A stretch of DNA of 64,000 bases. Source: an uncultured Bacteriovoracaceae bacterium. GTDB taxonomy: Bacteria > Bdellovibrionota > UBA2428. Shown here piece after piece: positions 33,195 through 55,619 of this stretch (positions are counted from its first letter, which is position 1; every line of letters begins with the position of its first letter). The notes under the pieces were generated by a model, which was not told the DNA's origin, searched no databases, and was given only the letters and a program-made list of their open reading frames with translations. Location of the stretch: the NCBI GenBank assembly GCA_964477895.1, contig CAYZFQ010000001.1, forward strand, positions 343,750-407,749, written 5' to 3'. The translations under genes were made by a program, and so were the position numbers.

Positions 33195-33195
33195 T

Positions 33196-34425: not shown

Positions 34426-34495
34426 CGAATTCTTAACACTTCGCTAACCGTATCTTGTTTGGATTGCTTCTATGCTCAACCACTACAATAGATAA

Positions 34496-37662: not shown

Positions 37663-38580
37663 GTGAACCAGTCGAGAGCCTTCTTGATGAGCATCGTGTT
37701 TGCCGGCCTCGCCATGCTTTTGGTTTACTTTTACGTTTCCGAGCGTGAGAGCAGCATTTCCGCCGAATACGGCACGCCCATTGCGGTGATCGTTGCCGCC
37801 AAAGACATCAACGAGTTCGAAGAAATTCAGCAAAGCATGTTGGCCGTAAAAGTCGTGCCCATGAAATTTGCTCAGCCAGGCGCTTACAACATGATCAAAT
37901 CGGGTAAGACCGAAAAACTTTCGCAGTTTACGGTAGAAACTTTTGTGGGCGCCGTGGCTTCGGCTCCCATTCGTAAGGGTGAGCAGGTCCTCTTAAATAA
38001 AGTTTTACTCAAGGGCGTGGAAACAGGCTTGGCCTCACAAGTCGCCATTTCGCGCCGAGCTCTTTCGATTCCCGTGAACGACACCACGGGAGTGACTAAA
38101 CTTTTAAAACCCGGCGACCGCGTGGATCTTATCGCGAGCGTTCAGTACAAGGGTCAGGGCGGTCAGGAATCTGAAGTTAAAACCCTCATGCAAAACGTTC
38201 ACGTTTTGGCCGTGGGTGAAGTGATCCAAAATAAAATTCCTACAGCCTTTGAAGTGGATCCTCTTTCAGGAACCCGAAAGGCTTTGAACCTTCGGGGGAG
38301 CCGCCAGTTCGGAACCATCACCGTAGAGGTCACCCCCGGCGAAGCTCAAAATATTATATGGGCTCTTCAAAACGGTTCTGAAATTTATACCAGCCTTCGA
38401 AATCCCGTAGATCGTGTGGTGGCCTCCGTCCCCACATCAACTGTGGACGAAGTCTTGGGACCTAACTCCAAAAAGGCCGAGCGGGAGCGAGTCAAACCCG
38501 TTATCAAGCCCGTGGAAAAAGCTCCGCCTCCGCCACCGCCTTCCAGCTTCAGCAACTCGGGTGGGGGATTATTTAAATAA
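37663..38580 (+). CDS. cpaB: Flp pilus assembly protein CpaB/RcpC, 305 aa
   Basis: N-terminal TM anchor then SAF/beta-rich domains. Gene order conserved with the Tad locus. C-terminal PPPPPPSS tract. Confidence 0.75.
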   Translation: MNQSRAFLMSIVFAGLAMLLVYFYVSERESSISAEYGTPIAVIVAAKDINEFEEIQQSMLAVKVVPMKFAQPGAYNMIKSGKTEKLSQFTVETFVGAVASAPIRKGEQVLLNKVLLKGVETGLASQVAISRRALSIPVNDTTGVTKLLKPGDRVDLIASVQYKGQGGQESEVKTLMQNVHVLAVGEVIQNKIPTAFEVDPLSGTRKALNLRGSRQFGTITVEVTPGEAQNIIWALQNGSEIYTSLRNPVDRVVASVPTSTVDEVLGPNSKKAERERVKPVIKPVEKAPPPPPPSSFSNSGGGLFK

Positions 38581-38581
38581 T

Positions 38582-40414
38582 ATGAGAAAGTCTTTCTTAA
38601 AGTTTTCTCTTTTGGTACTCGGAGTTTTTATAGGCTCCCTTCGAGCTCAGGACGCCGAGCCGGCTCCAGATTCCTCAACTAACCGAAATCCAGCCATGGT
38701 TCCTCCGGCGGGTTCACCGGCCGAAGCTGAGCCCGCACCCACTCCCTTGGCTGAAGAAACCCCAGCTCCCACTCCGCTTAAGGAAACCCTTTCATTAATA
38801 GACGGGATTAAAAGCGATGTTCCTGGATCCATTGCAGATACCAACGTTAACCGAATCATGGAATCTAAGGTTAAGTCCCAAACTTTAAATCCTGACAAAG
38901 GCTTTGAAGACCTCTTCTTAACTAAGAACTCCAGTGCGGTATTAGACATTCATAAACTGCCCGTGAAAAATCCCGGGGAAGATTTGGAATGGCTCCAAAC
39001 CAATATTGGCATTGTGGCCAAATCAGAAAAAGACCCCTCAGGTGGTTTTCGTGTTTATGCGGGAACCCAAGTGGGTTCGACTCAAATTCTTGTTTACGAG
39101 CGCAAGGCCGCTGTTGCCGGTAAACGAGATCGTGGAAATCTCCTTAAAGTCTACCGAGTAACGGTAACCAGCGAAGACCTTCTTTCACTGCTCCAAGAAA
39201 TTAAGGCCCTAATCGGAAATGTGGAAGGTCTAGATATTCGAGTGGTGGGCACCCAAGTCGTGATTGATGGAGCGGTCCTTGTCCCCAAAGACATGCGCCG
39301 AGTGGTGGCCGTGGTGAGCAAATATCAAACAGAGAAAAAGCCAGTGATTAACTTAGCTGAGATCTCTCCTCTAACTACCAAGCTTCTGGCTGAAAAAATG
39401 GAAGAAGAAATTGCGGGTGGAAAAGACCGACCCCGCGAAATTAAAGTTAAAGTCGTGAACGGAAGGTTTTTCCTAGAAGGTGCGGTAGACAAACAGGCTG
39501 AGCGTGAAACCGCCGTTCGAATTTGCCAAGCCTACATTTCAGAGCGCTACACCCTTGAAAACTCAGCCTCGGTGCAATCGCCTCGAATTCCAGGCCTTAA
39601 TGAATGTGTGCTGATGGTAAAGATTCGCCAAGGCCAGCCGGCGGATCCCGATCCCATCATTAGTGTACGCGTGGATTTTGTTACTTTAGATCGAAACTAC
39701 CTTAAGAGCTTTAACTTTAGGTGGGCGCCTGGAATGAACTTGAAGGGCGAAGTGGGTTATTCCAGTGACGCCGGAAAATTTCTCACTTCCTTTGTGGGCC
39801 TCTTGGATAATCTATTTCCCAAGTTAGAAACAGCGGCTTCTCATGGACATGCGCGTATTCTTAAAACGGCAACTCTTCTTGTGCGAGACGGCGAGAACGC
39901 GGCCAAAGGTGGGGGAGCGCCGCCCGAGGCTCAAATATCTGAAGTGTTAAAACTTCCTGTAATGATTCAGGGCACCGCTAATTCGCCAGGATCTTTCACC
40001 ACGGTTCCGGTTGAAACCTACATTAAAATTTTGGCCAAATCGGTGCCAGGGTCCGACAAAGTGAATATGGATATCTCAGCCAAGCAGTCTGAGATTAAAA
40101 GCCAAAACAAAGAGCAAGGTCCCACCGTCTTAGACAACATGATCCAAACCAGTATCGTGGTGGCCAACGGTGAAAGTGCGGCCTTAGGTGGCTTGATTGC
40201 CGAACGTCGCAACGTAGATATCACCCGGGACCCGGCCTCCGATGGTAACGCGGCCACTTCAGCCCAAAATAAATTTGAACTCTTCGACATCGGTCGAGGT
40301 CATAGCTTCAGCGACTCCAAAGTGCAGTTTATTGTCTTTGCCACACCCGAGAAACTGCGCACACCCTCTGAAGGAACCGAAAAACTTAAGCGTAAGTTTA
40401 GGTTGAGGAAGTAA
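38582..40414 (+). CDS. cpaC: Flp pilus secretin CpaC/RcpA, about 610 aa from ATG 38582
   Basis: Signal peptide MRKSFLKFSLLVLGVFIGSLRAQ. C-terminal secretin signature VVANGESAALGGLI. The track ORF begins inside cpaB. Confidence 0.8.
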   Translation: MRKSFLKFSLLVLGVFIGSLRAQDAEPAPDSSTNRNPAMVPPAGSPAEAEPAPTPLAEETPAPTPLKETLSLIDGIKSDVPGSIADTNVNRIMESKVKSQTLNPDKGFEDLFLTKNSSAVLDIHKLPVKNPGEDLEWLQTNIGIVAKSEKDPSGGFRVYAGTQVGSTQILVYERKAAVAGKRDRGNLLKVYRVTVTSEDLLSLLQEIKALIGNVEGLDIRVVGTQVVIDGAVLVPKDMRRVVAVVSKYQTEKKPVINLAEISPLTTKLLAEKMEEEIAGGKDRPREIKVKVVNGRFFLEGAVDKQAERETAVRICQAYISERYTLENSASVQSPRIPGLNECVLMVKIRQGQPADPDPIISVRVDFVTLDRNYLKSFNFRWAPGMNLKGEVGYSSDAGKFLTSFVGLLDNLFPKLETAASHGHARILKTATLLVRDGENAAKGGGAPPEAQISEVLKLPVMIQGTANSPGSFTTVPVETYIKILAKSVPGSDKVNMDISAKQSEIKSQNKEQGPTVLDNMIQTSIVVANGESAALGGLIAERRNVDITRDPASDGNAATSAQNKFELFDIGRGHSFSDSKVQFIVFATPEKLRTPSEGTEKLKRKFRLRK

Positions 40415-40417
40415 ATC

Positions 40418-42607
40418 ATGGCTGATCCAAACCAAAGTCCGGGCGGTCACATCATCGCCATCGTAGGTGGTAAGGGTGGAGTTGGAAAATCAGTTTTTGC
40501 CGCCAACTTTGCCCTCTCCATGGCCATCGATGCCAAGAATGGCCCGGCTCTAATTGATATGGATCCTCAGGGTACCGGCGACTTAAATTTGATCTTAGGC
40601 ATCAAGCAGGTCAAAGGTTTCGGTGAGCAAGTGCTCGAGGGAAAGATTCGAGATTCTGCGGCCCTAAAGCAATTTCTGACCCCAGCTCCTAACACACAGA
40701 GCCCACTTTACACCTTGCAGATGATGAGCAACCCTGAGCGCCTTCTCGTCCAAGATGATGAGCGTGTGGATTTAGCCTTAAAATCTTTGCGCAAAGCCTT
40801 TCCTGTAACCATCATCGACTGTGGCACTTCACTTGAAGGGCCGATTCTTAAAGTTTTGGATTTGGCTTCGATGATCATGGTAGTGACCAACCCCGAGATT
40901 CTTGTTCTCAACCAGACGAAGAAGATCTTAGATAAAATCCAAACCCTGCTTTATCCGCCCGACATGACAAAAATAGTTTTAAACAAGGTTTCACCTCAAA
41001 GTCCCTACACGGCGCAATTTTTAGAGCAAAGTCTTAAGCGCCAGGTGATATCTGTGGTCCCTGAAGATGTGGCTGCCGCCAGTATGGGTTTGGCCAAAGG
41101 ATCTCCTTTTGTGGTGTCTTCACCTCAGTCCGGCGCCTCCAAAGCTCTTTTCCAGCTCAGTCGCCTGCTCATTGAGCGCAAAGTCTTAGATCAGCTCCAA
41201 ACTCTAAGTCGCCCCCCTCGTCCCAAAGCGGCCTTGGAAGTTATTGAGGGCGGAGCCTCATCGGTGGCTGCAGGCTCCAGCGGTAACAATGAGGTTAAGC
41301 ACGGACGTTTTGGAAAGGATCCCAGAGATCCGCGCAGCATTTTTAAACTCCGAGTCCATGCTCAGCTTGTTGAAAAAATGGATTTAAAAAAAGAACAGCT
41401 CGATCGGGCCTTAGACAACGAGAAAAAAGTGGAGCTTAAGAACAAAGCTCTTAAAATCGTGAGTGAGATCATGAATAACGAAGACCACCCTTGGAAGAGC
41501 CGCGAAGACAGCGCTCAACTCATCAAGGAAGTCTTAGATGAGGCCCTAGCCCTGGGGCCCTTAGAAGATTTGATAGCCGATGATTCCGTTACCGAAATCA
41601 TGGTGAACCGAGCTGACCTAATTTATATTGAGCGCGCGGGTCGCAATACTAAGTCTAAAGTAACTTTTTCAAGCAATACCCAGTTGATGGCGGTCATTGA
41701 GCGGATCGTCAATCCTATCGGCCGGCGCATTGATGAAAAAACCCCCTACGTAGACGCCCGTTTAGCAGACGGAAGCCGGGTCCATGCCATCATTCCTCCC
41801 CTTTCATTAGATGGTCCCATGGTCACCATTCGTAAATTTCCTAAAAAGCGATTGGGCCCTGAAGATTTAATTAAATACGGTTCGGTCACACCCGAAATGT
41901 CAGATTTTTTACGAGCCTGCATTGAAGCCCGCCTCAATGTGATTGTGAGTGGGGGTACGGGTTCTGGTAAAACCACTCTTTTAAATATTTTATCAAGTTT
42001 TATCCCAGCAACTGAACGTATCCTTACCGTGGAAGACGCGGCCGAGTTGCGGCTTAACCAAGAGCACGTGGGCCGTTTAGAAACACGTCCTCCCAATATC
42101 GAAGGCGCCGGTGCTGTTACTATTCGAGATCTGGTACGCCAAACTCTGCGTATGAAACCTGACCGCATCATCATTGGTGAAGTGCGAGCCGGTGAGGCGC
42201 TCGACATGCTTCAGGCCATGAATACGGGGCACGATGGTTCAATGGCCACGGTCCATGCCAATACTCCGCGAGATGCCATCGCTCGTTTGGAAACTCTCGT
42301 GATGATGGCGGGCATGGACTTACCCGCCAAGGCCATTCGCGACCAAATTTCTAGCGCTGTGCATTTGGTGGTTCAACAAAGCCGTTTATCCGATGGGTCT
42401 CGTAAAGTGACTTACGTGACGGAGATCACCGGGATGCAGGGAGATGTGATTTCTTCCCAAGATATATTTCAGTTTAAGCAACAAGGTTTGGATTCCAATC
42501 GCAAGGTAATCGGTAAGCACGTGGCGACCGGTTTTATTCCTAAGTTTATCGAGAGGATTGAGGCTTTGGGAATCAAAATTCCCCGAGGACTCTTTAAAGC
42601 GGCATGA
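40418..42607 (+). CDS. fused TadZ/CpaE-like ParA-type ATPase (N-terminal about 260 aa) and TadA/CpaF secretion ATPase (C-terminal), 729 aa
   Basis: Deviant Walker A IVGGKGGVGKS near the N-terminus (ParA/MinD). Later VSGGTGSGKTT, DRIIIGEVR and GHDGSMATVHAN (VirB11/TadA). A single uninterrupted ORF. Confidence 0.8.
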   Translation: MADPNQSPGGHIIAIVGGKGGVGKSVFAANFALSMAIDAKNGPALIDMDPQGTGDLNLILGIKQVKGFGEQVLEGKIRDSAALKQFLTPAPNTQSPLYTLQMMSNPERLLVQDDERVDLALKSLRKAFPVTIIDCGTSLEGPILKVLDLASMIMVVTNPEILVLNQTKKILDKIQTLLYPPDMTKIVLNKVSPQSPYTAQFLEQSLKRQVISVVPEDVAAASMGLAKGSPFVVSSPQSGASKALFQLSRLLIERKVLDQLQTLSRPPRPKAALEVIEGGASSVAAGSSGNNEVKHGRFGKDPRDPRSIFKLRVHAQLVEKMDLKKEQLDRALDNEKKVELKNKALKIVSEIMNNEDHPWKSREDSAQLIKEVLDEALALGPLEDLIADDSVTEIMVNRADLIYIERAGRNTKSKVTFSSNTQLMAVIERIVNPIGRRIDEKTPYVDARLADGSRVHAIIPPLSLDGPMVTIRKFPKKRLGPEDLIKYGSVTPEMSDFLRACIEARLNVIVSGGTGSGKTTLLNILSSFIPATERILTVEDAAELRLNQEHVGRLETRPPNIEGAGAVTIRDLVRQTLRMKPDRIIIGEVRAGEALDMLQAMNTGHDGSMATVHANTPRDAIARLETLVMMAGMDLPAKAIRDQISSAVHLVVQQSRLSDGSRKVTYVTEITGMQGDVISSQDIFQFKQQGLDSNRKVIGKHVATGFIPKFIERIEALGIKIPRGLFKAA

Positions 42608-43553: not shown

Positions 43554-45149
43554 ATGGCTCGTACTCGAAATCTTTGGCTTCTTGGAGTTCTTTTATTCAG
43601 TGCTTCTATCTCGCAGGCGGGAGTGAACGTGAACAACGGGAATTTCTACATTGCGTATACGGATTTTTTCCTTCCCACTCCGGGACTGAATGTGGAAATC
43701 ACCCGCACCTACAATAGCCGATCAAACTATGCCAAAGGCTACTTTGGGATGGGTTGGTCCTCTGAAATGGAAGGTTACCTAGTTTTCGATAAGAGCACCT
43801 TGGTTTACTTCGAGGGAGGCGGAGGTAACGCCGTTCGCTTCGAGCCTGTGAAAGGTAAAAAAGGGGAGTGGTCTAACTCCATCTACGGAAATCAAAATAT
43901 TCGGCAAATCAAAAATGGCTATGTGCTGCGCACTCCCGTGGCTAAGGACCTCCAGTTTGATATGAAGGGCCGGCTGGCCAAGATTTCCGACCGCAATCGC
44001 AATTACATTGAGTTTGTCTACAAGGGTGTTCGCCCGCAGATGATCAAAGACAACCACAATAACCAAATCAAAATTAGCTGGAAAGACTTCGGAAAGTTCC
44101 CCCGAATTGTGGCTCTCGAGCGTGGTGAAATGAAAGCCCGATATGAGTATTCACCAACCGGTGATCTTGTTAAGGCCTCCGGCCTCGATGGCAACCCTTT
44201 CGAGTACGCCTGGGATGACGAACACAATCTCACCAAGATTTCTTATAAAGACGGCACCTACCGAGAAATCGCTTACAACAAAGTTCGCGACTGGGTTGTG
44301 AAGTACCGGGAGCGCGACAAATGGATTACCGACTACGAATATATCTCGGATACTTTAGATCCAGAGAATAAATTTGGAACCGTTGTGAGCCGCTACAAAG
44401 AGGGCTCAAAAGATAAAGAATCATCGCGCTACTGGTACGAGTTCCGCCGGCGCGCGGATGGCAGTCGTTACAATTACAAAGCCGTAACGCTAGCCAATAA
44501 CTTAGCGACAGAGTCCATCTTCACGGAGTGTTGCAATACTCCACTTGTCATTTCGCAGTGGAACAGCAATGACCCCAAACGAAGTGACGCACCGGATGCC
44601 TGGATTACAGCCAAGGGTCAAAAGCGCTCCACTTTTTTTGAATATTATGCCGATGGATTGTTAAAGAAGAAAACGGCTCCGGATGGAGCTGTAACTTTCT
44701 TAACCTACGATCCTAAAAATGGGAAAGTGGCCTCGGTAAGCCGTGCCGGTCGTAAAGTGGAATACAACTACGATGTGCGCGGAAACTTAGACTGGGCCTA
44801 CGATAGTGGCGACAATAAGCGCATTGACCTGACCTACGACCTTAAGGGTCGAATCACGGTAGTTAAAGAAGCGATCAATGGTGCCAAAGCCAGCTCTCGA
44901 CTCGTGTACTTCCGCTACAATGCTGAAGGAAAACCGATTGAGGTGAAAGAAAAAACTTCAGACGGCAACCAAGGATCCATTCAAATTGCCTACGATCGTA
45001 ACGGCGAAGTCTTAGCCATCACCAACAGTAAGGGTCGGGCCGTAGCTTCTGAGAACGAAATCGCAACGGCTCAGCGAGTGGCCATGACTTTCCAGAACTT
45101 AATGGAAATCGTGCAGCCCGCAGGGGTTAGCCTGAGTCCGGAAGGGTGA
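43554..45149 (+). CDS. secreted YD/RHS-repeat protein, about 531 aa from ATG 43554
   Basis: Perfect SD CAGGAGGG plus signal peptide. Repeated Y-x-YD/YEY motifs (YEYSPTGDLV, FEYAWDDEHNL, VEYNYDVRGNL, LTYDLKGRI). Plausible counterpart of Bdellovibrio hit-locus partner protein. Confidence 0.7.
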   Translation: MARTRNLWLLGVLLFSASISQAGVNVNNGNFYIAYTDFFLPTPGLNVEITRTYNSRSNYAKGYFGMGWSSEMEGYLVFDKSTLVYFEGGGGNAVRFEPVKGKKGEWSNSIYGNQNIRQIKNGYVLRTPVAKDLQFDMKGRLAKISDRNRNYIEFVYKGVRPQMIKDNHNNQIKISWKDFGKFPRIVALERGEMKARYEYSPTGDLVKASGLDGNPFEYAWDDEHNLTKISYKDGTYREIAYNKVRDWVVKYRERDKWITDYEYISDTLDPENKFGTVVSRYKEGSKDKESSRYWYEFRRRADGSRYNYKAVTLANNLATESIFTECCNTPLVISQWNSNDPKRSDAPDAWITAKGQKRSTFFEYYADGLLKKKTAPDGAVTFLTYDPKNGKVASVSRAGRKVEYNYDVRGNLDWAYDSGDNKRIDLTYDLKGRITVVKEAINGAKASSRLVYFRYNAEGKPIEVKEKTSDGNQGSIQIAYDRNGEVLAITNSKGRAVASENEIATAQRVAMTFQNLMEIVQPAGVSLSPEG

Positions 45150-45161
45150 TAGGGGAAGAAA

Positions 45162-45584
45162 ATGAAAATAAAAATTTTATCTCTTCTCAGTATTTTTACT
45201 CTCACAAGCTCCGCTTTTGCCCAAGGCTACATTCAGGGTAGGGGCGGCGGAGGCTGGGATCAGCAAGGCGGCACCCAAGAAACGATTCGTTATCGTGAAA
45301 GCTATAACCAGCAGGGCGGTCAGCAGGGCGCCTACGTGAATTGTATGCCGAATTGTCCACCCTCGGTGGTGATGCCACAGCGCTCCCAGGTGCTAGTTGC
45401 TGAAACCGGTGACATCATCAATGGTTGCGACACGGGCCGCTTTGATAAAAAAGAATGGCGCAACGACTACCGTGATGAAGGCGACGAACGCGAGCACGTG
45501 ATCAGAGAAAGAGTGTATGTACCACCTCGGTCAGAAGGCGATGGTAAAGAAGTGCCTCCAAGAAGTAACGGTTTAAAGAAGTAA
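45162..45584 (+). CDS. small secreted Gln/Gly-rich, four-Cys protein, 140 aa; candidate hit-locus (Bd0108-like) protein
   Basis: Signal peptide. GGGGWDQQGGTQ...NQQGGQQG repeats encoded by imperfect direct repeats CAGCA(A/G)GGCGG at 45261, 45309 and 45321. Position immediately after the tad genes and the YD-repeat gene. Confidence 0.5.
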   Translation: MKIKILSLLSIFTLTSSAFAQGYIQGRGGGGWDQQGGTQETIRYRESYNQQGGQQGAYVNCMPNCPPSVVMPQRSQVLVAETGDIINGCDTGRFDKKEWRNDYRDEGDEREHVIRERVYVPPRSEGDGKEVPPRSNGLKK

Positions 45585-47729
45585 TTACTTCGTAACTCCA
45601 CCTGTGTAAGAAGGCAGCCAGCTCCAGCCCCAAGTGCTGGGCTTATTCCAAATGCGCTTTGGAGGTCCCGCTTTTTTCGGCTGCCAGTTCCATCCGGGCA
45701 TTCCCTTAATGGAATAAGTTTGCTTTCGTTCTATTTCCCTTTCTTCAGCGGCAATTCTAATGGAACTTTCGCTCCACTGATCCGCTCTTTCAAAAGCCAA
45801 GCTAAGAGACTTAGCATCGTGCTGAGCACTGTCTAAGCGATTCAGGGAAGTGGTCTCTCTCCAGAACGGCTGGGTGGGTGTGGAAATTTCTGGCGTGGGC
45901 AGCTGGGCTTCCGCTTCAGGCAAATTAATTACCGCCACTACCCCTGGATGCTTTTCCAGATTAGCCATTTTTTCGGGACTGTGAGCTTCTTTTTCAGCGG
46001 CAGCCTCAGCTTCTTTGGTCATTGTCTTAATTTCTTCTTCAAGACCCTTTATGGCCTTGTCCAAGTTGGCAATGTCGCTAATGTCGAAGTCGCTTTTAGG
46101 AGGCCCAATGTCGTTTTTCTCTTGTATAAGTTTATACATTTCATCGCTTTTCGCCCGAATGGCCAAGTGGTCTTCTTTCGACATCATAGGACGAGCAATA
46201 ATCACAATAGACTTAGTCTCGGACGGTGGAGCCATGGGCATTGGGGGGCCTTCTAGCGCTGGCGCACCAGGCGGTAGCTTTCTAAACTCGAGTTGGGGTA
46301 TTTCTTCGTTGCCAGTCTTGGTGACATCGACCTCGATGAAGGGCACTAATTTTTCAACCGGAGCTTGTACTCTTTCTAAGGGCCAAAATCTTTTAGCAAA
46401 GGCGCCTTCAATCGCTGTGATAACATCTTCGGTTTTAGATAGGGCGCGAGCCACGTAAATCTCGCTATTCTTCGCATTGACTAATGCCGGACCATCGATG
46501 CCATTGTAAGTTCCAGCAAGATAGGCCGGTGAAAAGAATTTTTGGAGCATGGAGCGCACGAGCAGAAGATCTTCCCGATTTTGCTTCCACTGCTGATAAA
46601 AGGCACGAAGTTCTTCTTCTCTTTCCACTTCAGCAAACGAATTTTGTCCCAGATTCGAATGAATTCCTTCTAAATCAGGCATGAAATCATTTTTAACCAC
46701 ATCGAGATAGAGATCGCTGATATCTTTTTGAGCCCGGGCAAGGCTGTCGGCCACAGGATCTACACGGTAAACAGTGACCTTGGCTCGATAGGCCGTTTCA
46801 AGAGCGCCGACAACAATTCCCGCAATTGCAAGGCCAGAGGCGGTTTGACTCATGTGCCGACTCATCCCATCCATTAAATCTGGAATAAAGACCCGATTGC
46901 CGTAGCCTAAAAGGAGAGTGCCTGGCGCTGCAGGATTGGCGGGAGCCGTTGGAATCGCACCTTTCTTGGCGCGTTTCGCCAACACGCGTTTCCACTGTAA
47001 GTCGGAAATTCGTTTAGCATACCTGTTGCTAAACCAAAGTTGAGGTCGATGAGCTCGGCTTTGTAAACGATTGCCCGCCATCGAGAGGCCACCAATAACC
47101 ATGCGTCCGGTAAAGAGGGCGGCCGATGCCATGAGCCATCCTTCCGAGGCGTTATAGAAATTATTTGAGTGATATGAGAACTCTCCGTTTTGTTCGCGGT
47201 TTCGTTTAACTTCAAGCTCATTGCGCATTTTTGCTTGTAACGTGCTCATCAGCATGGAAATGGCGTCCCAAATGACGTCGGGCTTTTGAGGAAAGGTGAC
47301 GAGAGCGGTTCGAGAATAAACTTCTGTAATTTCTCCCATCATGGCTGCAAATGAAGCCTTCTCAGTGAGAGTATCAAAAAGCAAAGTTGCCACTTCGTCG
47401 GCTGCTTGCTCCGGGCTCAGAGAAAGAAGTACGGAGTTGGCGTAACGGTCGCGGCACCGCTTTCCATCGAGGCGTAACTCTTCGGCGGAAGCCTTGCCCT
47501 CCGGACTTTGAAGATTTTCATCAGGAGGCAAGAGCTTTCGATAAGTCTTAAAAGGTTCAGCGCGAGGGGTGGTGTCGAGTGCGGAGGCCTCTCTGTCTGC
47601 CAGAATACTTACGCACAGATATTCCGTGATTTTTTGCCGAGCGAGTTCGAAATCATCTTTAACTTCAGCCCCCTGGGCAGATAAAAAAGTGCCAGAAATC
47701 AACGCTAAGAAAAGGGTTTTGTAACTCAT
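45585..47729 (-). CDS. hypothetical secreted protein, 714 aa, Trp-rich C-terminal tail
   Basis: Signal peptide. C-terminus GMPGWNWQPKKAGPPKRIWNKPSTWGWSWLPSYTGG. Its stop codon abuts the stop of 45162..45584 (TAATTA). Confidence 0.6.
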   Translation of the reverse strand: MSYKTLFLALISGTFLSAQGAEVKDDFELARQKITEYLCVSILADREASALDTTPRAEPFKTYRKLLPPDENLQSPEGKASAEELRLDGKRCRDRYANSVLLSLSPEQAADEVATLLFDTLTEKASFAAMMGEITEVYSRTALVTFPQKPDVIWDAISMLMSTLQAKMRNELEVKRNREQNGEFSYHSNNFYNASEGWLMASAALFTGRMVIGGLSMAGNRLQSRAHRPQLWFSNRYAKRISDLQWKRVLAKRAKKGAIPTAPANPAAPGTLLLGYGNRVFIPDLMDGMSRHMSQTASGLAIAGIVVGALETAYRAKVTVYRVDPVADSLARAQKDISDLYLDVVKNDFMPDLEGIHSNLGQNSFAEVEREEELRAFYQQWKQNREDLLLVRSMLQKFFSPAYLAGTYNGIDGPALVNAKNSEIYVARALSKTEDVITAIEGAFAKRFWPLERVQAPVEKLVPFIEVDVTKTGNEEIPQLEFRKLPPGAPALEGPPMPMAPPSETKSIVIIARPMMSKEDHLAIRAKSDEMYKLIQEKNDIGPPKSDFDISDIANLDKAIKGLEEEIKTMTKEAEAAAEKEAHSPEKMANLEKHPGVVAVINLPEAEAQLPTPEISTPTQPFWRETTSLNRLDSAQHDAKSLSLAFERADQWSESSIRIAAEEREIERKQTYSIKGMPGWNWQPKKAGPPKRIWNKPSTWGWSWLPSYTGGVTK

Positions 47730-49141
47730 TCGGCAGCTCCATTTTTAGTGGTTCGGGGAAAGGTGGTCATATAATCATCAATGATAATTTCTACGGCTTT
47801 AGATGTGCGGCCATGGCGGTACATCTCACTTAAAGCTTGGAGGGCGAGAATTCCGGCATTTTGGGTGGATAGTCTCTGTGCTTCAAGACTGAGCGAAAAA
47901 GCAGCGGGATCCGCATCAAAGCGTTCCCATTCGGAGTAAAAAAGCTCGATGACTTTTGGATTGTTAAGCGCTTGGGAGCTATCCAAAAACTCTGCCGTGT
48001 CTCGGGCGACTGTTGCTTCATCAGTGGCCTCACGCACTTTTTCATAATGACTTTTTATAAGAACATGGGTTTTATCCATCGTGAGGCGGTAAAGATTAAT
48101 TGTTTGGGATTCGAAGCGGCGGAAGGCACTTTCTATATCCCAGGAATTGGCGGTTGATCTTAGCTTGCGAAATTCTTCTAAAGCCTCGAGGTATTTCTTT
48201 TCTGCCTTCAAATCCTGGTTGTAAAATTTGTTAACCCCAACGGCGATTCCAGCCGTGAGTAACATGGAAGAAAGCAACTGTTCGGGTTGAATGGTGTTGT
48301 AAACAGCTCTCCCTCCCTGCAGCATTTTTTTGGCCAAGCGCGGCCAGAGAGCCTTTTCATCGCTCAGAGCAAGTTGAGCTAAAAAAGAACAATTCTTTGA
48401 ATTTGACCACCGGCTAAAAGCCGAGGTCTCAAAAGCTTTTTCAACTACAAAGTTGGCCAAGGTGTTTTCCGCGCCGGCTAAGTAAAAATCTTCCACGTAT
48501 TCACGCAGAGCATTTTCCTCTAGGTCTACCGGAGCAACGTCGAGCTTTACACCTAGGATTTCAGCAGGTGATGTGGGGATTTTAAAAGAAGCCAAGGAGT
48601 TGCTCACTCCCTCGATGCCCTTAATCGACCCTGCCAGCGAAGCTGCGGGAATCGCCGAATAACCCAGTCGTAAAGCATTCTTTGACCAGGACCCACGAGC
48701 TGAGGCCAATAGATTGAGGTAGCGGCGCCTAAACACCGGGGTGCGGATTAAGCCGTTGAAGGCAAAGGCGGTATAAAGACCGTACTGAGCGCTTCGACCC
48801 AGAGACTCTTTTTTGAGGTCTGCAACTGTTGTTTCGTAGTTGGCGGTCCAGCGCTGTTGGGCTTTCCATAGCAAATCTAAATAAGCGTCATCAGTTTCTG
48901 AGAGTTCAGAAAAGTGTTCTAAAGTTTTGCGGTAGATAGGAGCAAAGGGGTCACGAAAGATTTCCGCGAGTATTTTGTTAGAATAGCGCCGCGCTAAATC
49001 CGGTTTTTGAGCATGATAATTTTTTACAAATTCGGCAGACCAGTTCTCGATCGGCATCTCCTCGGCATGCAAGAAGGCAGACAAAGCGAGGCCCAGAAAG
49101 GGACCTTTTTTCGCTAATGTCGTTAGAGCCTTCATTTTCAT
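47726..49141 (-). CDS. hypothetical secreted protein, 471 aa
   Basis: Signal peptide. ATGA overlap with the downstream 714-aa gene. Confidence 0.6.
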   Translation of the reverse strand: MKMKALTTLAKKGPFLGLALSAFLHAEEMPIENWSAEFVKNYHAQKPDLARRYSNKILAEIFRDPFAPIYRKTLEHFSELSETDDAYLDLLWKAQQRWTANYETTVADLKKESLGRSAQYGLYTAFAFNGLIRTPVFRRRYLNLLASARGSWSKNALRLGYSAIPAASLAGSIKGIEGVSNSLASFKIPTSPAEILGVKLDVAPVDLEENALREYVEDFYLAGAENTLANFVVEKAFETSAFSRWSNSKNCSFLAQLALSDEKALWPRLAKKMLQGGRAVYNTIQPEQLLSSMLLTAGIAVGVNKFYNQDLKAEKKYLEALEEFRKLRSTANSWDIESAFRRFESQTINLYRLTMDKTHVLIKSHYEKVREATDEATVARDTAEFLDSSQALNNPKVIELFYSEWERFDADPAAFSLSLEAQRLSTQNAGILALQALSEMYRHGRTSKAVEIIIDDYMTTFPRTTKNGAAE

Positions 49142-49160
49142 GCCTTCCTTAAAGTTTTCC

Positions 49161-52100
49161 CTAGTAACGCTCTTGGTAAAATTCTACGAGTTTTTGCTGC
49201 CGGATATTTGCCTCTTGATCGCGGCCCAATTTCCAGAGCTTTGTTTCCCAAGAAGTTAAGCCCGTAGATTTTTCGGCCAACAGAGCATCGACTCGGTAGG
49301 TTTTACCTAAGTTAATTTGCTCAATGAGGAAGTTACGGGCTTGCTCAATGGCGGTTGCATCAGCCTGAGCGTTGCGGGCTTTGGCAAGGTCAGAAAGAAT
49401 GCGAGCCTGCTCATTGATTTGAGCAACGTCCCACTCTCCCTCTTTAACCGCCAGGCGTTGAAAGGAAGACTTGGTCTGCAGAAGCCATTCGTAAAGTTTT
49501 CCGGGGGCTCCAAGACGCAGGCTGACGAGTTTGTATAGACCATAGCCACCCAGGCCGGTAAAAATCACCCCTGGAATAAAAAGGCGCAAGGCACTGGACT
49601 TGGCTTCGTCCTGGAATACGGCAAGCGCCGAAATATTATAAAAAGAAGAATTGGTGAGAGAGGATTGTTGGAGGTCATTTGCCAAATTGAGTTCCACCTT
49701 GTGGCGGCTAAAGTAGTCGCGTCCATCGTAATACATGTTAATGGCGATAAGGGGAATGATGGCCTTAAGCACTGTTCCTCCGAGGTGTGAAACGCCTCGA
49801 GAAAAACCTTCAGCTGCGATAATCCACATATTGCTGCGACCCACAAAGCGACGGGTCCCGAGGCGAGCGGCGTCTACGATAAGTAGGGCCCACAAACCCG
49901 CATTTACTGGCTGTAAAACCTGTTGGACGTAGTCTCGCGTGAAAACTTCAAAGGGATCTTTGTCGCTTAAGCCGTCGATGAACTCTTTCATGGGCTTTTG
50001 GTATTCTGGGAAACCTTCTAAAATCATTCTTCGAAGAATTGCAGATTTTAAGAGACCATCGAGCTCATAGTTTTTGTCGGACGTGAGGGCACTAATTTTT
50101 TGAATATTTGCCCGCGTTTCAATTTCTTGGATTTCCAAAGCCTTAGTGACGACCTTAGTGAGCATTCCGGGGAATTTTTTTGCCTCCAGAATCACTTCGT
50201 GTAGGGGGTGTGTTCCATTGGAAAGTTCCGTGAATTCAGTGCCTCGACCGGTTTTTAGGGGCATATTCAAGAAAGGTTCCGCTTCAAACTGAGCTTCTTG
50301 TTGTGCCGCTCGGTAGGAACTCAGGGCTGCAGGATTGTATTTGAAAACCGTTGCGGCATTGATGGACTGACGTTGGGCCGTGACGGGGTCAAAGAAGCGC
50401 AATTCCTTGCCCACGCCAACCCAGGCTTTAACCTCATCTTTAAGAATAGTCGCTTGGCTAGTGGCAATGCGCTGGTCGTACTTATCTTTAATGTTGGAAT
50501 CGGCGATCGCCTCATGTCCTTCCACGAATTTAAGGGCCGATTCCGCAGGATTGGTGGGATCCAACAATTTGGGGTCGATAAGCTCATAAAAACGCGAGAA
50601 GAAAACTTCACGCGCTCCAAGGTAGGTGCGGGGTTGGGGCTTAAGAGGATTCGTTTTATCAAGACCTAAGTCCACGAGCCACGGGCTAAGGCGCACGGAT
50701 TTGCCAAGGTGCAGCTTGGAGTTCGCTAAGGCGGAAGAAATGGCTTGGGGCATGGAGAGTGGCTGTAGGGCCGAATCATTTTTATAATCTTCAGCAGCCT
50801 TCACGATATGATAGGGAAAATCACTTTTACGCAAATCTTTTTCTTCGTTTTCCAAAGCAAGGACATTGCTGCGTTCAAGAAAGTCTTCGGCGTCTAAATT
50901 GAGGCGTTTTCGATAAGCCGCTTTCTGTTCTTCTAAACTCTGCTCAAGGCGATAGATGAGGGGCGCGAGTTTTTTATTTCGTTCCATGGCAGCTGCCTTT
51001 TGTGAGTCATCTTTCATGGCTGCAATAGCTGAGGGTCTCTGCCGAGCGAGAAAGGGAGACTTAAGCATGAGGCGAACTTTGGCTGTTTCAAACTGCGCTT
51101 CTACGATAGTTTTAAGAAGCATCTCTTCTCGAAGTTTGCGGGTGGTGCCTGAAAATACGTATTCGTGATTCTTTAAAATATTTGAGAAATTTTCCGGAAA
51201 GTCGATACGGAAGCCTTCGTTTAATTGAAGTCGGGCATTGTCCATCTGCATTTTTTTGTCGTCTGCGGTGATCTCGGGAATTTCTTTTATGAGCTCATCA
51301 AAAAATGAACTTAAATACTCGTCGGTGATAAAGGGTGGCAGCTGGGAATATTCCTTGTTTATCAACTCTAAAAGGGCGCGTCGAAAGCTGCTTTCCTTGG
51401 CGAGAATGGAATCTTCTCTGATCATTTCTGGCATCACTTTTAAGGCGGAATACTGGGCAGAAAAGGTCTTATTAAGTTCTCCTGGGCGACACTCTTCGCT
51501 CTTTTGACCGCGACGGCGACAGATGACTTTGAGATTGTCTTGCAATTGTTGAATGGCCAGAAATTGAGTGAGCTCAAAAAGAGCTTTTTTGTCGATGTTT
51601 TGTTTGTAGATGCGCTGGCCTTCGACCACCCCATGGATAAACCAAAGACTCAGTTGAACATTTACAACTTTGTCTTCTTTGGCTCTCGACCAGTCAAAGC
51701 TAAGGCTTCTGGATTTTCTTGGAAAGCGATCATCCACCTCATAGTTCATAAAGGGGAGGTTCATGGCCACCATTACAGGAACTCGAACGGTGAAACGTCG
51801 GCTAAAGTCATAGACTGAACTTTCGAGTGTAATTTCAGGGTTGCGCTCTCGGGCTAGGACCCGCAATGAGATAAGGCTTCGAACCAAATCGCGGTGGATC
51901 AAAATAAATCTCGCGAAATCGCCAGTAGTGCCCTGGAGGATTTGATCGCTTTCTCCATAGACTTCCATGAGCTTTGCCAGTTCACCGAGTTTGGTGTTGA
52001 GCAGGTGAGTAAATCCATCCACTTCTTTTTCGATGGCAAGAAGATCTTCGGTATTTACTAATTTGCTGATACCCGTGGTAGTCCCGTTGGGGTTCGTGGT

Positions 52101-52448
52101 CCCAGAATTTAAGAGCTCAAGTTTTTTCTCAATTGGCTCGGCATAGTTAAGGACTTCGGCGAAAGTTTTAAGCTTAAAATTGCCTAAAAGACTCGCGCGC
52201 TCTCCTTTGAGAATAATATGGCTTCCGTCCGCACTGACTTCGAAATTTTGCCCAGATGAGGGGGATTGAGTGGGGGGCGTTGGGGAGGGGGTCGAAGGAC
52301 TAACCGGAGATGAGGCTTCCTTCCCTTCGGTCGAGCCTCCAGAGGGTGAGCATCCCGCTAAAATCAGCGAGAATACGCTGAGAGCACCAAGTAAAAAATC
52401 CTTTTTTTGCCTTGCAAGTTTTTCCACGAGCCGCGGATTATAGCGCAT
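49161..52448 (-). CDS. large hypothetical lipoprotein, 1095 aa
   Basis: Lipobox LILAGC followed by an S/P/T-rich linker. No recognised catalytic motif. Confidence 0.6.
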   Translation of the reverse strand: MRYNPRLVEKLARQKKDFLLGALSVFSLILAGCSPSGGSTEGKEASSPVSPSTPSPTPPTQSPSSGQNFEVSADGSHIILKGERASLLGNFKLKTFAEVLNYAEPIEKKLELLNSGTTNPNGTTTGISKLVNTEDLLAIEKEVDGFTHLLNTKLGELAKLMEVYGESDQILQGTTGDFARFILIHRDLVRSLISLRVLARERNPEITLESSVYDFSRRFTVRVPVMVAMNLPFMNYEVDDRFPRKSRSLSFDWSRAKEDKVVNVQLSLWFIHGVVEGQRIYKQNIDKKALFELTQFLAIQQLQDNLKVICRRRGQKSEECRPGELNKTFSAQYSALKVMPEMIREDSILAKESSFRRALLELINKEYSQLPPFITDEYLSSFFDELIKEIPEITADDKKMQMDNARLQLNEGFRIDFPENFSNILKNHEYVFSGTTRKLREEMLLKTIVEAQFETAKVRLMLKSPFLARQRPSAIAAMKDDSQKAAAMERNKKLAPLIYRLEQSLEEQKAAYRKRLNLDAEDFLERSNVLALENEEKDLRKSDFPYHIVKAAEDYKNDSALQPLSMPQAISSALANSKLHLGKSVRLSPWLVDLGLDKTNPLKPQPRTYLGAREVFFSRFYELIDPKLLDPTNPAESALKFVEGHEAIADSNIKDKYDQRIATSQATILKDEVKAWVGVGKELRFFDPVTAQRQSINAATVFKYNPAALSSYRAAQQEAQFEAEPFLNMPLKTGRGTEFTELSNGTHPLHEVILEAKKFPGMLTKVVTKALEIQEIETRANIQKISALTSDKNYELDGLLKSAILRRMILEGFPEYQKPMKEFIDGLSDKDPFEVFTRDYVQQVLQPVNAGLWALLIVDAARLGTRRFVGRSNMWIIAAEGFSRGVSHLGGTVLKAIIPLIAINMYYDGRDYFSRHKVELNLANDLQQSSLTNSSFYNISALAVFQDEAKSSALRLFIPGVIFTGLGGYGLYKLVSLRLGAPGKLYEWLLQTKSSFQRLAVKEGEWDVAQINEQARILSDLAKARNAQADATAIEQARNFLIEQINLGKTYRVDALLAEKSTGLTSWETKLWKLGRDQEANIRQQKLVEFYQERY

Positions 52449-52541
52449 CGCGTCATGAATATCAAGGCTATAGAAATAAAAAAACCGACCCTTCCTGACG
52501 GAAGGATCGGCTGATCTGTGGATAAGGTTAAAGGTCTATAA

Positions 52542-53519
52542 TTATTGGGCGTAGGCTGCAGTTTGCATGTCGTCTGCATCAGGAAAACTAATACCTGCAG
52601 GGGCTTGTAATACTCGGCAGTTACCTGTGTAGAGGCCGGCACCTAAGCGTTTCATTATTTCAAGTTCACTCATTGCTTTGTAGGTAGCAGCCATTGCAGC
52701 TTTGAGGGCATTAAATACCGCTACACGAGCAGGTTCTCCGCTTTTACCCTCTGCGGCGCTAACGCCAGTCCATGCAATCTGAGCTGAATTACGCGATGCG
52801 GGACCAAAACCTTCGTTTTCTTCTGTGGCAGGGTTGTCTTTAAGACACGCTACGTCCGGTCCGAAAATCGAGGATACTGTAGGTGCACTGGCTAAAACCG
52901 ATCGGATAGCTTTAATGTTTGGGTTTGAGCAGTAACCTTCTTGAGTGCCACCACAATCCTTACGAACTGTAGCCATCAAGGCGGCGGCCTCAGCGCTGCT
53001 AATCTTAGTTTCAGCAACGGCAGTTTTCTCGGTGGAAGTGTTGAGACTCACCAATTCACCCATGGTGGATCCAGCAAGGGCATCAATACGAGCTGTGGAA
53101 AGGGGCTTTCCGTTTTCGGCGGCCACATCTGTAGCAATTTTTTGAACTAAAGAGGTCAATGAAGCGGCAACTTCCTTAGCGGCGGGGTTGGTGCTCGAGC
53201 TAAGAGCTTCGATCACTTGGCCTAGCTTTTGAGCGTTTAATTCTCCCGCGGGCATAACTTTTCCGGCAGTTTGCATTGCTTGGCGAGTTTCAGTGAAAAT
53301 ACCGCTCGATGTTTTAGCTGAACGATTGAGAACTGCTACGGCAGATTCGCCTACAGCAGGGTTCAACAGTGCTTCTAAAGCAGTTGCGCTGCGAGTTGCG
53401 GCACTCACATTGCCGCTGGCATTCGCCACTCCGATGCAGCCACCATGAGCCGCAACAGCAAGACTAAGAATTAAAGGAAATTTGTTCAGTTTCTTCATTG
53501 ATCCTCCACAATTGATCAT
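52542..53519 (-). CDS. hypothetical secreted Ala-rich protein, 325 aa
   Basis: Signal peptide. First gene of the minus-strand operon 53519 -> 45585. Confidence 0.55.
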   Translation of the reverse strand: MINCGGSMKKLNKFPLILSLAVAAHGGCIGVANASGNVSAATRSATALEALLNPAVGESAVAVLNRSAKTSSGIFTETRQAMQTAGKVMPAGELNAQKLGQVIEALSSSTNPAAKEVAASLTSLVQKIATDVAAENGKPLSTARIDALAGSTMGELVSLNTSTEKTAVAETKISSAEAAALMATVRKDCGGTQEGYCSNPNIKAIRSVLASAPTVSSIFGPDVACLKDNPATEENEGFGPASRNSAQIAWTGVSAAEGKSGEPARVAVFNALKAAMAATYKAMSELEIMKRLGAGLYTGNCRVLQAPAGISFPDADDMQTAAYAQ

Positions 53520-53728
53520 TTGATTTGTTGAGTGTGCTTAACGCAGAAAGCTATAAGACGCAATGCATTATCTCCCTTAAAAAGTATTTTATGCAGCTGC
53601 CTAAACTTTAGACAGTTCTGGCCAGAGACTAGTCAGATTAAGCCTTTTAAAATCAATGACTTACAGCTGGGCCCTTCATTGTAAACGCTGGCATAGCTTC
53701 TGCAACATTGTCAGAAGGAGGCTTTTTT

Positions 53729-53995
53729 ATGTTCCATGTCGGGAAAATTTCGCTCTTAGTATTATCAGTTTTGGTGGGTTCTAAGGCCTTCGCAGCTCCA
53801 TCTCATCAAGCTAATGCCCAACCACAAATGTCGAGGTCTGAAGCCACCCAGGGCAGCCGGGGTGCGGGTTATGATTTGAATTTTAATGCCGCTCTTTGTG
53901 GCGTAGATGGACCGAATATTGGTCGATTCCAAACCGACAGTCGCAGCGAAAATCCTCGCAACCGTGGATTCGACGATCACAATAACGACAGCTAA
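53729..53995 (+). CDS. small secreted protein, about 88 aa
   Basis: AGGAGG SD 7 nt upstream of ATG 53729. Signal peptide ISLLVLSVLVGSKAFA. Confidence 0.45.
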   Translation: MFHVGKISLLVLSVLVGSKAFAAPSHQANAQPQMSRSEATQGSRGAGYDLNFNAALCGVDGPNIGRFQTDSRSENPRNRGFDDHNNDS

Positions 53996-54308
53996 TTCCT
54001 ATCACCGAGCTTGGACGGCTTCCGTGGCCTCTTCTTGAGCTTCGCGATTTTTCCGTAGTCGTGGAGCAAACTCCACATAGAGAGCTTGGATCTTTTCACC
54101 TGTCCAGGTGAGGGGTCGCGCGATTGTCCAAAAAGTTTTCTGAAATTTCGGGTGATTCACCGCCTGATGATATCTATTCTCTAGGCTCTTTCCCTGAATC
54201 GGGATTTGGCCCAAAAGTGTGATCCACAAAAAAAACAACGCAATTCGGCCTATGTAACGAAGCATCCCCATATCGTCATTATAATGATTTCGAGATAGAA
54301 CTCTAGGG

Positions 54309-55619
54309 ATGTATCCATCGCTGAGTGTGGAAGATATCTTCCAAGGGAAAAAAAACGAGAACGACTCCGTAAAAATTCAGGGCTGGGTTTATAACGCCCG
54401 GTCGAGTGGAAAGATTAAGTTTCTTCTCTTGCGCGATGGATCAGCCACTATTCAGTGTGTCTTTTTTCCGGCCAACACATCGCCTGCGGCTATGGAGGAG
54501 TTCTCTAAGCTGAGCCAAGAGAGCTCGGTGGAGGTCGACGGTTTTTTGACGAAGTCGCCTAAGTCACCTGGTGGTTGGGAAATTCAGGTGAAAGAGCTCA
54601 AAGTGCTGCAGCAGGCGGTAGACTTTCCCATCACCCCTAAAGAACACGGCCCTGCCTTTTTGCTGGATCAAAGACATCTTTGGATTCGCTCAAAACGACA
54701 ACACGCCATTTTGCGCATTCGGGCTGAAGTGGTTTCGGCAGTGCGGACGTTTTTTGATGAGCGTGGCTTCATCGGTTTTGATGCCCCCATCTTCACACCC
54801 AATGCTTGTGAAGGCACAACAAATTTATTTGAAGTGAATTACTTCGATGATGCCAAGGCCTATCTGACTCAAAGTGGTCAGCTTTATGGTGAGGCCGGAG
54901 CGATGGCTTTCGGTAAGGCCTATGTTTTTGGGCCCACCTTTCGGGCGGAGAAATCTAAAACTCGTCGGCACCTTACGGAATTTTGGATGGTGGAGCCAGA
55001 AGTCGCCTTTATGGATTTGCAGGGCAACATGGAACTCGCTGAAGACATGATGTGCTACATCGTGGAGCGAGTGATAAAAAATCGTAAGCGAGAACTTGAG
55101 GCTTTGGAGCGCGATATGTCGAAGCTGGAGTGTGTGAAAAAGCCTTTTCCTCGAATTCATTACAAAGAAGCTGCCGCGATCTTAGAAAAAGAATCCAAAG
55201 ACAATTTTAAGATGGGGATGGATTTTGGCGGGGGTGATGAAACCATCTTGGCTTCAAAATTTGACCGTCCGGTTTTTGTCCATGGTTTTCCCACAGCGAT
55301 CAAGGCTTTTTATATGAAGGAGGATCCTTCGGACCCTACTTACACTTTGTCGTGCGACTTGTTGGCGCCCGAGGGTTATGGAGAAATTATCGGTGGGGCG
55401 CAGCGGGAAGAGGACATCGAAGTTTTAAAACGAAAAATTGCGGAACACGGTTTAGATCAGAAGGTTTTCGAGTGGTACTTGGATTTGCGTCGTTATGGGT
55501 CGGTTCCTCATGCGGGATTCGGAATGGGCATAGAACGCTGTACCGCGTGGATTTGTGGGACCGAACATGTGCGTGAGTGCATTCCGTTCCCGCGGATGTT
55601 GTATCGACTGAATCCTTAG
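54309..55619 (+). CDS. asnS: asparaginyl-tRNA synthetase (class IIb), 436 aa
   Basis: N-terminal OB-fold anticodon-binding domain (VKIQGWVYNARSSGKIKFLLLRDG). Class II motifs FRAE, GGAQREE and GFGMGIERC. Confidence 0.85.
   Translation: MYPSLSVEDIFQGKKNENDSVKIQGWVYNARSSGKIKFLLLRDGSATIQCVFFPANTSPAAMEEFSKLSQESSVEVDGFLTKSPKSPGGWEIQVKELKVLQQAVDFPITPKEHGPAFLLDQRHLWIRSKRQHAILRIRAEVVSAVRTFFDERGFIGFDAPIFTPNACEGTTNLFEVNYFDDAKAYLTQSGQLYGEAGAMAFGKAYVFGPTFRAEKSKTRRHLTEFWMVEPEVAFMDLQGNMELAEDMMCYIVERVIKNRKRELEALERDMSKLECVKKPFPRIHYKEAAAILEKESKDNFKMGMDFGGGDETILASKFDRPVFVHGFPTAIKAFYMKEDPSDPTYTLSCDLLAPEGYGEIIGGAQREEDIEVLKRKIAEHGLDQKVFEWYLDLRRYGSVPHAGFGMGIERCTAWICGTEHVRECIPFPRMLYRLNP

Follow-up and report, generated by a model that had tools for sequence, protein, structure and literature searches.

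The stretch analysed here, referred to as the window, comprises 64,000 nucleotides (nt) of the chromosome of an uncultured Bacteriovoracaceae bacterium of the Bdellovibrionota (assembly GCA_964477895.1, contig CAYZFQ010000001.1). Its minus strand carries a block of four genes, here called A to D, and judging from sequence comparison the last three of them, B-C-D, are a real, conserved and undescribed cell-envelope module. We propose, with a probability of roughly 45%, that the products of B, C and D form a self-contained three-protein complex that is anchored in the inner membrane, faces the periplasm and is apparently specific to the Bdellovibrionota. This proposal is based on how the genes are laid out, on the module's conservation, on the absence of known domains and on the pattern of hydrophobic segments and charges in the three protein families. 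Gene A appears to be a lineage-specific companion of the module that stands outside its conserved core.

Gene layout and start sites

In the direction of transcription, gene A (52542-53498; 318 amino acids (aa) from Met8, within a longest open reading frame (ORF) of 325 aa at 52542-53519) is followed after 93 nt by gene B (49161-52448), a long ORF of 1095 aa. A gap of 19 nt, or 19-25 nt depending on the start of C, separates B from gene C (47726-49141; 471 aa, or 469 aa from Met3), and C is joined to gene D (45585-47729; 714 aa) by an ATGA overlap that translationally couples D to C. The original prediction, drawn from the DNA letters of this region, had described four minus-strand ORFs with this overlap and with gaps of 19 and 93 nt, all of which are present in the sequence. 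Its sizes of 325, 1095, 471 and 714 aa are correct for the longest ORFs, while two of the proteins would be slightly shorter. Gene A most likely begins at Met8, since a GGAGGA ribosome-binding site lies 4 nt upstream of this codon (53498) and the public protein collection holds the protein as the 318-aa form only. Gene C probably begins at Met3, which gives 469 aa, because this start has the better ribosome-binding-site spacing and is the form called on DNA identical to the window.

Conservation of the B, C and D families

When 1.84 billion representative proteins were searched exhaustively by phmmer with B as the query, six relatives of 972-1030 aa were recovered, with 21-25% identity and E-values from 2e-31 to 4e-5; one of them is annotated as coming from a Bacteriovoracia metagenome-assembled genome (MAG). 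A pattern scan of 185,579 species genomes added a truncated locus in a Bacteriovoracaceae MAG, and a scan of Joint Genome Institute (JGI) metagenomes added one more truncated locus. The scan of public contigs with B alone gave no match, and word-indexed homologue searches, for which B, D and the B alignment served as queries, yielded nothing but the query itself.

In all five loci whose DNA continues past B, two genes follow on the same strand, and the junctions are almost all 4-nt overlaps; the contig of a further locus (L003) stops inside the first gene downstream of B. According to phmmer and hidden Markov model (HMM) comparisons, the genes downstream of B fall into two families, C and D, their C- and D-like identity being established where DNA is available. 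In a small database, made up of about 24 sequences of these loci, the C-family HMM matched the C protein of the window (471-aa form) with E = 7e-17, and the 714-aa D protein of the window was the best outside match of the D-family HMM, although a weak one (E = 8e-4). Comparison of this D protein with the D family by hhalign gave P = 3e-4 and a probability of 39%. The alignment shows a common order of motifs, namely a helix, PD-x-I, a Trp with hydrophobic segment 1, a basic loop, hydrophobic segment 2 and R-(L/V)-D-P. No paralogy was detected among B, C and D, and the alignments of the three families contain no invariant residues of catalytic appearance.

Two side observations concern the arrangement of these loci. 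At L005 (12988-16475) the order is B-D-C, the reverse of that in all other loci, and the trio is kept. At L004 (5051-8825), which lies in a Bacteriovoracia MAG, the opposite strand upstream of B-C-D encodes two more exported proteins, a lipoprotein-like one of 798 aa and one of 462 aa, neither with a Pfam match.

The distribution of gene A is far narrower. Its sole relative, a gene of 280 aa, lies upstream of B in L003; over the C-terminal 60 aa the two are 36% identical (E = 7e-6).

Two Logan contigs, from runs SRR13208906 (L001) and SRR13208889 (L002), are 100% identical in DNA to window positions 45132-50930 and 47614-50349, respectively. By this identity the two runs contain the same organism as the window and probably represent its source samples, and the contigs, which offer no comparative information, were dropped as candidates for independent close relatives. 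The AsnRS and citrate synthase of this genome have no relative at an identity of at least 90% in the protein collection.

As far as can be seen from these searches, the B, C and D families are restricted to the Bdellovibrionota, a group that is under-sampled and in which orphan envelope operons are common. We hypothesize that B-C-D may be an ancient, fast-diverging module.

Transcription units

An intrinsic terminator is predicted on the minus strand directly after gene A (52483-52512), combining a stem of 13 bp with a GUCA loop of 4 nt and a U-run. The predicted fold has an energy of -23.3 kcal/mol (z = -4.96), a value that was not equalled by any of 200 shuffled sequences. Directly past this terminator, on the same strand, stands a candidate sigma-70-type promoter for B-C-D (52437-52465; TTGATA-17-TATAAT) that matches 11 of the 12 consensus positions. 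Because both elements lie in the A-B gap, the layout is best described as gene A alone, followed by B-C-D. No internal terminator or promoter was found between B, C and D, and the three genes are conserved together, as is characteristic of an operon. Gene A is thus probably a transcription unit of its own, ending at the intrinsic terminator, and B-C-D would be an operon complete in itself, transcribed from a promoter of its own and tightly coupled in translation. The single four-gene operon of the original prediction does not survive this analysis, given the terminator and promoter that split A from B and the presence of A in the window and L003 only.

The position of the promoter also bears on the start of B, as its -10 box shares nucleotides with codons 3-4 of the long B ORF. 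Translation may begin at a downstream GTG (Val8, 52427) on a leaderless or very short-leader mRNA, and this start would leave B with a more typical lipoprotein signal peptide of 26 residues. The A-B gap of L003, which among the homologous loci is the closest to the window, contains two promoter-like sites with 10 of 12 consensus matches. Both in the window (52425-52448) and in L003 (2853-2886), the annotated B start coincides with a sigma-70-like -10 box or is only a few bases away from one. The position of this box in the two loci suggests that the B start is either leaderless or mis-annotated.

Searches for known families and mobile elements

When A, B, C and D were compared with Pfam, NCBIfam, PADLOC and PHROGs, only noise was obtained, and the same was true of a Pfam scan of all the sequences aligned for B, C and D. 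The absence of recognisable domains noted in the original prediction is therefore borne out by the lack of any Pfam or NCBIfam match for the four proteins. A hint of DUF6739 in D (Pfam, E = 0.054) falls in a coiled-coil-like stretch. Sequence and profile searches of the PDB returned coiled-coil noise apart from one borderline match to the J domain of RabJ, which is discussed below. Foldseek found no fold match in the PDB, the best hit having E = 0.06 and TM <0.15 and coming from a low-confidence model. An Rfam scan of window positions 44000-55000 gave no match. We call the three families new in the sense that their relation to any described family is undetectable by these searches, and a new mechanism is not implied.

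The codon usage and GC content of the block are the same as those of the rest of the window, no flanking repeats were found around it, and tblastn against plasmids gave no match. Since the codon usage matches that of the window and flanking repeats are lacking, the block is considered resident and not recently acquired. The possibility of a mobile element, phage or defence cargo found no support, given the matching composition, the lack of flanking repeats and the lack of significant PADLOC, PHROGs and plasmid matches.

Export signals and predicted membrane topology

Signal peptides and topology were judged by eye, with hydropathy and the positive-inside rule applied by hand. The N-termini of A, B, C and D all consist of a basic region, a hydrophobic stretch of 10-15 residues and a small-x-small cleavage site, a pattern that marks the four proteins as predicted Sec substrates; those homologues that were recovered complete likewise begin with hydrophobic segments resembling signal peptides. 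The product of gene A is Ala-rich, and its signal peptide ends in ANA|SG. The signal peptide of B ends in a lipobox (...SLILAGC|SPS) that fits the pattern [LVI][ASTVI][GAS]C and is followed by a Ser/Pro/Thr-rich tether. The lipobox is not conserved in the six homologues. The earlier designation of B as a lipoprotein thus agrees with its LAGC lipobox, and B is probably lipidated in this genome, lipidation not being a trait of the family.

A helical structure is predicted for the whole of B, C and D (the structure models reached a predicted local distance difference test (pLDDT) score of 59.9 for B and 38.8 for C). After the tether, B continues into an all-helical domain of about 800 aa. The family alignments and hydropathy place three conserved, weakly hydrophobic segments at residues about 844-977 of B (window 49518-49919, minus strand). 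Of the two loops between these segments, the first is short and has a basic character in each of the seven sequences (1-4 Lys/Arg against 0-1 Asp/Glu), and the second is mixed or acidic. C contains a conserved hairpin with a basic loop at residues about 117-175 (window 48617-48793, minus strand), and in D a hydrophobic hairpin at residues 197-315 (window 46785-47141, minus strand) includes a loop of about 75 aa that is rich in Arg and Lys. The hairpin loops of C and D are Arg/Lys-rich and have few or no acidic residues. In some C homologues the segments reach Kyte-Doolittle values of 2.5-2.6, at which they would be expected to act as stop-transfer helices.

As the hairpin loops are basic and acid-poor, the positive-inside rule places them in the cytoplasm of the producing cell, which would leave the large helical domains in the periplasm and the proteins anchored. 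We therefore favour a reading of B, C and D as all-alpha-helical proteins, each exported by a Sec signal peptide and held in the inner membrane of the predator by weakly hydrophobic helical hairpins whose short basic loops would be cytoplasmic. The periplasmic parts would comprise most of C, the two halves of D and a stretch of about 800 aa in B, and the last 110 aa of B would lie in the cytoplasm. The three proteins could assemble into one heteromeric envelope complex, acting as a periplasmic scaffold or tether or as a relay across the membrane, and would not be released. The block had initially been described as encoding large secreted proteins; signal peptides are indeed present on all four, and the conserved hydrophobic hairpins with basic loops indicate that B, C and D are probably membrane-anchored.

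The same features invite comparison with tripartite alpha-pore toxins, which are encoded by three adjacent genes, are all-helical with a central hydrophobic hairpin, and carry signal peptides in the Gram-positive examples. B, C and D might be released and insert into prey membranes as a tripartite alpha-helical pore-former or translocon in the manner of AhlABC/SmhABC or Hbl/Nhe. Like these toxins of the ClyA superfamily, they are the products of three adjacent genes and are all-helical; the genes would be co-transcribed, and the proteins have signal peptides and weakly hydrophobic Gly/Ala-rich hairpins; their confinement to the predatory Bdellovibrionota and their very fast divergence, at 21-25% identity, would be expected of prey-facing proteins, and the Trp/Lys-rich tail of D could serve as a membrane-interface anchor. 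However, basic, acid-poor hairpin loops in all three families are a signature of loops located in the cytoplasm of the producer and indicate retention in its own membrane, and the very hydrophobic segments of some C homologues would stop transfer in the inner membrane. Moreover, the Pfam matches of the members of all three families, listed up to E = 5, include no HBL or ClyA-type family, and Foldseek, starting from a low-confidence model, found no match in the PDB. The known tripartite toxin components are also 2-3 times smaller than B, C and D, which in addition show no detectable paralogy with one another. Taken together, these points make a prey-directed pore improbable.

The C-terminal domain of B

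The last part of B forms a separate domain of about 110 aa (window 49164-49496, minus strand) that is predicted to be cytoplasmic. The best PDB match of a family profile of this domain is the J domain of RabJ (E = 0.036), with 59 columns in register. The J domain is a four-helix fold of about 70 residues with an invariant His-Pro-Asp (HPD) loop between helices II and III. When the domain was compared by hhalign with a hand-assembled J-domain alignment that includes RabJ, a probability of 48% and P = 1.8e-4 were obtained, and the alignment is in register with J-domain helices I-III. Scored against the full B profile, the J profile gives 26 at the C-terminal domain, compared with 13-15 elsewhere in B, C or D.

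B of the window lacks the HPD motif, which is not conserved in the B family either, HPA and RPD remnants occurring in two homologues; Pfam DnaJ does not match the domain. At most, we regard the C-terminal domain of B as a decayed J-like domain, and its predicted cytoplasmic site is consistent with the topology model proposed above. As suggested here for B, DjlA of Escherichia coli, Sec63 and Pam16/Pam18 place a small helical J-type domain on one face of a membrane. They differ from B in that the match of the latter is borderline, lacks the HPD motif and is not recognised by Pfam DnaJ. To our knowledge, DjlA has no large periplasmic domain.

Points against an anchored complex

Several considerations weigh against an inner-membrane-anchored B-C-D complex. 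The topology relies on hydropathy and the positive-inside rule applied by hand, and the hydrophobic segments of the window proteins themselves are marginal (Kyte-Doolittle 1.2-1.7), so that some of them could be amphipathic. The structure models are of low confidence, with the pLDDT values given above, and have no fold match. A lipoprotein that also carries three transmembrane segments, as predicted for B, would be unusual. The placement of the D protein of the window in the D family depends on weak statistics, and the assembly of B, C and D into one complex is, like their topology and function, inferred.

Envelope assemblies of broadly comparable design are known. TolA, PilN/PilO and GspL/GspM likewise combine a membrane anchor with long helical periplasmic domains and take part in heteromeric assemblies, a likeness that we extend to B-C-D on the basis of prediction. 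Their anchors are single and N-terminal, whereas B, C and D would have a cleaved signal peptide and internal hairpins. Searches of Pfam, NCBIfam and the PDB revealed no homology of B-C-D to any of these proteins.

The Trp-rich tail of D

The C-terminal region of D consists of a Pro-rich linker, a coiled-coil-like stretch and a Trp-rich tail, KGMPGWNWQPKKAGPPKRIWNKPSTWGWSWLPSYTGGVTK (window 45588-45710, minus strand). Six of the 14 Trp residues of D fall within the last 40 residues. It had been suggested that this tail might be a sorting or membrane-interaction signal. C-terminal sorting signals typically comprise a brief signature motif followed by a transmembrane helix, with basic residues clustered at the extreme C terminus. 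The NCBIfam sorting-signal models (PEP-CTERM, GlyGly-CTERM, MYXO-CTERM, LPXTG and similar) gave nothing above noise with the 714-aa D protein, the tail contains no hydrophobic helix, and it is absent from the other four D-family proteins. The Trp-rich end is thus real, and its interpretation as a sorting signal is not borne out.

The tail would gain a different meaning if B-C-D were a tether linking the inner membrane to the outer one, with the lipid anchor of B and the Trp tail of D reaching the outer membrane and the hairpins held in the inner membrane, so that the assembly would set or reinforce the spacing of the envelope. Such a design could draw on the lipobox of B with Ser at +2, its flexible Ser/Pro/Thr-rich linker of 45 residues, the Trp/Lys/Pro-rich character of the D tail and the long helical periplasmic domains. 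However, the lipobox and linker of B and the tail of D occur in this genome only and are absent from the homologues, and they therefore cannot be part of a conserved mechanism of the family. We consider a tether of this kind quite unlikely.

The convergent junction with the neighbouring gene

On the plus strand, the module is met by a gene for an exported, Gly/Gln-rich protein of 140 aa (45162-45584), which follows an RHS gene resembling Bd0109 and lies outside the module. The stop codon of D (45585-45587) directly abuts the stop codon of this gene (45582-45584), giving TAATTA at 45582-45587. This zero-nucleotide stop-to-stop junction had been correctly identified from the letters. No intrinsic terminator is predicted at the junction on either strand, and a bidirectional terminator, which was considered as an explanation, is likewise not found there. 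The earlier claim that the convergent transcripts overlap accordingly stands as an inference from the lack of a predicted terminator, and the absence of a terminator where the module meets the hit operon may lead to transcriptional interference in this genome.

A perfect 14-nt palindrome, GAAGTAATTACTTC, surrounds both abutting stops (window 45578-45591) and arises because D and the 140-aa gene both end in ...GAAGTAA. It folds to a hairpin of 5 bp only, no more stable than shuffled sequence. The palindrome is probably due to chance, though it could be a protein-binding site.

Relation to the tad/hit region and the surrounding chromosome

The plus-strand genes upstream of this junction encode TadE, RcpC/CpaB, a secretin, a TadZ-like/CpaF fusion, TadB/C, an RHS/DUF6531 protein and the 140-aa exported protein. 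In the fusion (window 40418-42607), which is the pilus ATPase, an N-terminal ParA/CbiA-type (TadZ-like) part is joined to a C-terminal T2SSE/CpaF ATPase in a single protein of 729 aa; TadZ and CpaF are usually separate genes in Tad clusters. Because the longest ORFs of RcpC/CpaB (37663-38580) and the secretin (38414-40414) overlap by 167 nt, the GTG start of the secretin at 38414 has probably been called too early. Directly upstream of the tad cluster, three consecutive plus-strand genes (593, 409 and 441 aa; window 31413-35821) have no Pfam match.

In published descriptions, Bd0109 is an RHS protein of 62.5 kDa and Bd0108 is a disordered exported protein of 101 aa with a Cys pair (PMC4267844). 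The arrangement of the RHS gene and the 140-aa gene appears to match these descriptions, the likeness to Bd0108 being one of position and description. In strain HD100, Bd0108 is followed by two small hypothetical genes (BD_RS00505 and Bd0103) and then by the chemotaxis gene Bd0102 (PMC5941755), and in Bdellovibrionales bins from activated sludge two or three short genes form an array after Bd0108 (PMC10469934).

A small plus-strand gene between gene A and AsnRS (window 53708-53995) encodes a protein of 95 aa with a clear signal peptide and a mature part rich in Gly, Asn, Arg and Gln, for which no family match was found. The idea that the module had been inserted into, and had split, an array of small hit-like genes was rejected, as the 140-aa and 95-aa proteins are dissimilar and neither flanking repeats nor a compositional break were found. 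The block is bordered on the right by AsnRS and citrate synthase, and to the left are found LepA, CarB, RecG, flagellin, a penicillin-binding protein (PBP) and a Mur ligase; the surroundings of the block are ordinary chromosome.

The location of the module raises the question of whether B-C-D could serve the adjacent Tad pilus/hit system in an accessory or regulatory capacity, with a coupling that would arise from their closeness and from convergent transcripts that overlap. The module is the physical neighbour of the Tad/Flp and hit locus known from B. bacteriovorus, directly adjoining the tad genes, the Bd0109-like gene and the gene at the Bd0108 position, and both systems concern envelope proteins of a predator. 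With zero nucleotides between the stops and no predicted terminator on either strand, the two operons must transcribe into each other. However, none of the five homologous loci with mapped neighbourhoods has tad/hit genes nearby (L003 is too short to judge); their neighbours are unrelated and include cytochrome oxidase, PrkA/SpoVR, MutL and alanine racemase. Conversely, HD100 and other Bdellovibrio keep the tad/hit genes without the module at this position (PMC5941755, PMC10469934). In addition, B, C and D have no homology to any Tad or hit protein, and the module lies on the opposite strand under its own putative promoter. An accessory role in the pilus/hit system thus appears very unlikely, and the co-occurrence with tad/hit genes that the original prediction had envisaged is contradicted by these loci. 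Adjacency to tad/hit would be a peculiarity of this genome and not a functional signature.

A predation or cell-envelope module had also been proposed for the block. The cell-envelope part of this proposal is sustained by the conserved, undescribed B-C-D module, and the basis for a role in predation is just the restriction to the Bdellovibrionota. An extended scenario, in which the large periplasmic helical domains of an inner-membrane-spanning, Bdellovibrionota-specific B-C-D complex sense or brace the envelope, the cytoplasmic J-like domain of B relays the envelope's state inward and mutual antisense transcription with the tad/hit operon wires the complex to the predatory switch in this genome, is hardly probable in our estimation.

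Significance

For annotation, the outcome is mostly corrective. The block should be described as one gene followed by a three-gene operon, the proteins of the operon are probably membrane-anchored, and the proximity of B-C-D to the pilus/hit genes should not be taken as functional linkage. The module offers a compact target for deletion and localisation studies. If B, C and D do form a real envelope complex, they would add three protein families to the poorly annotated envelope of predatory bacteria, which must survive squeezing into the prey.

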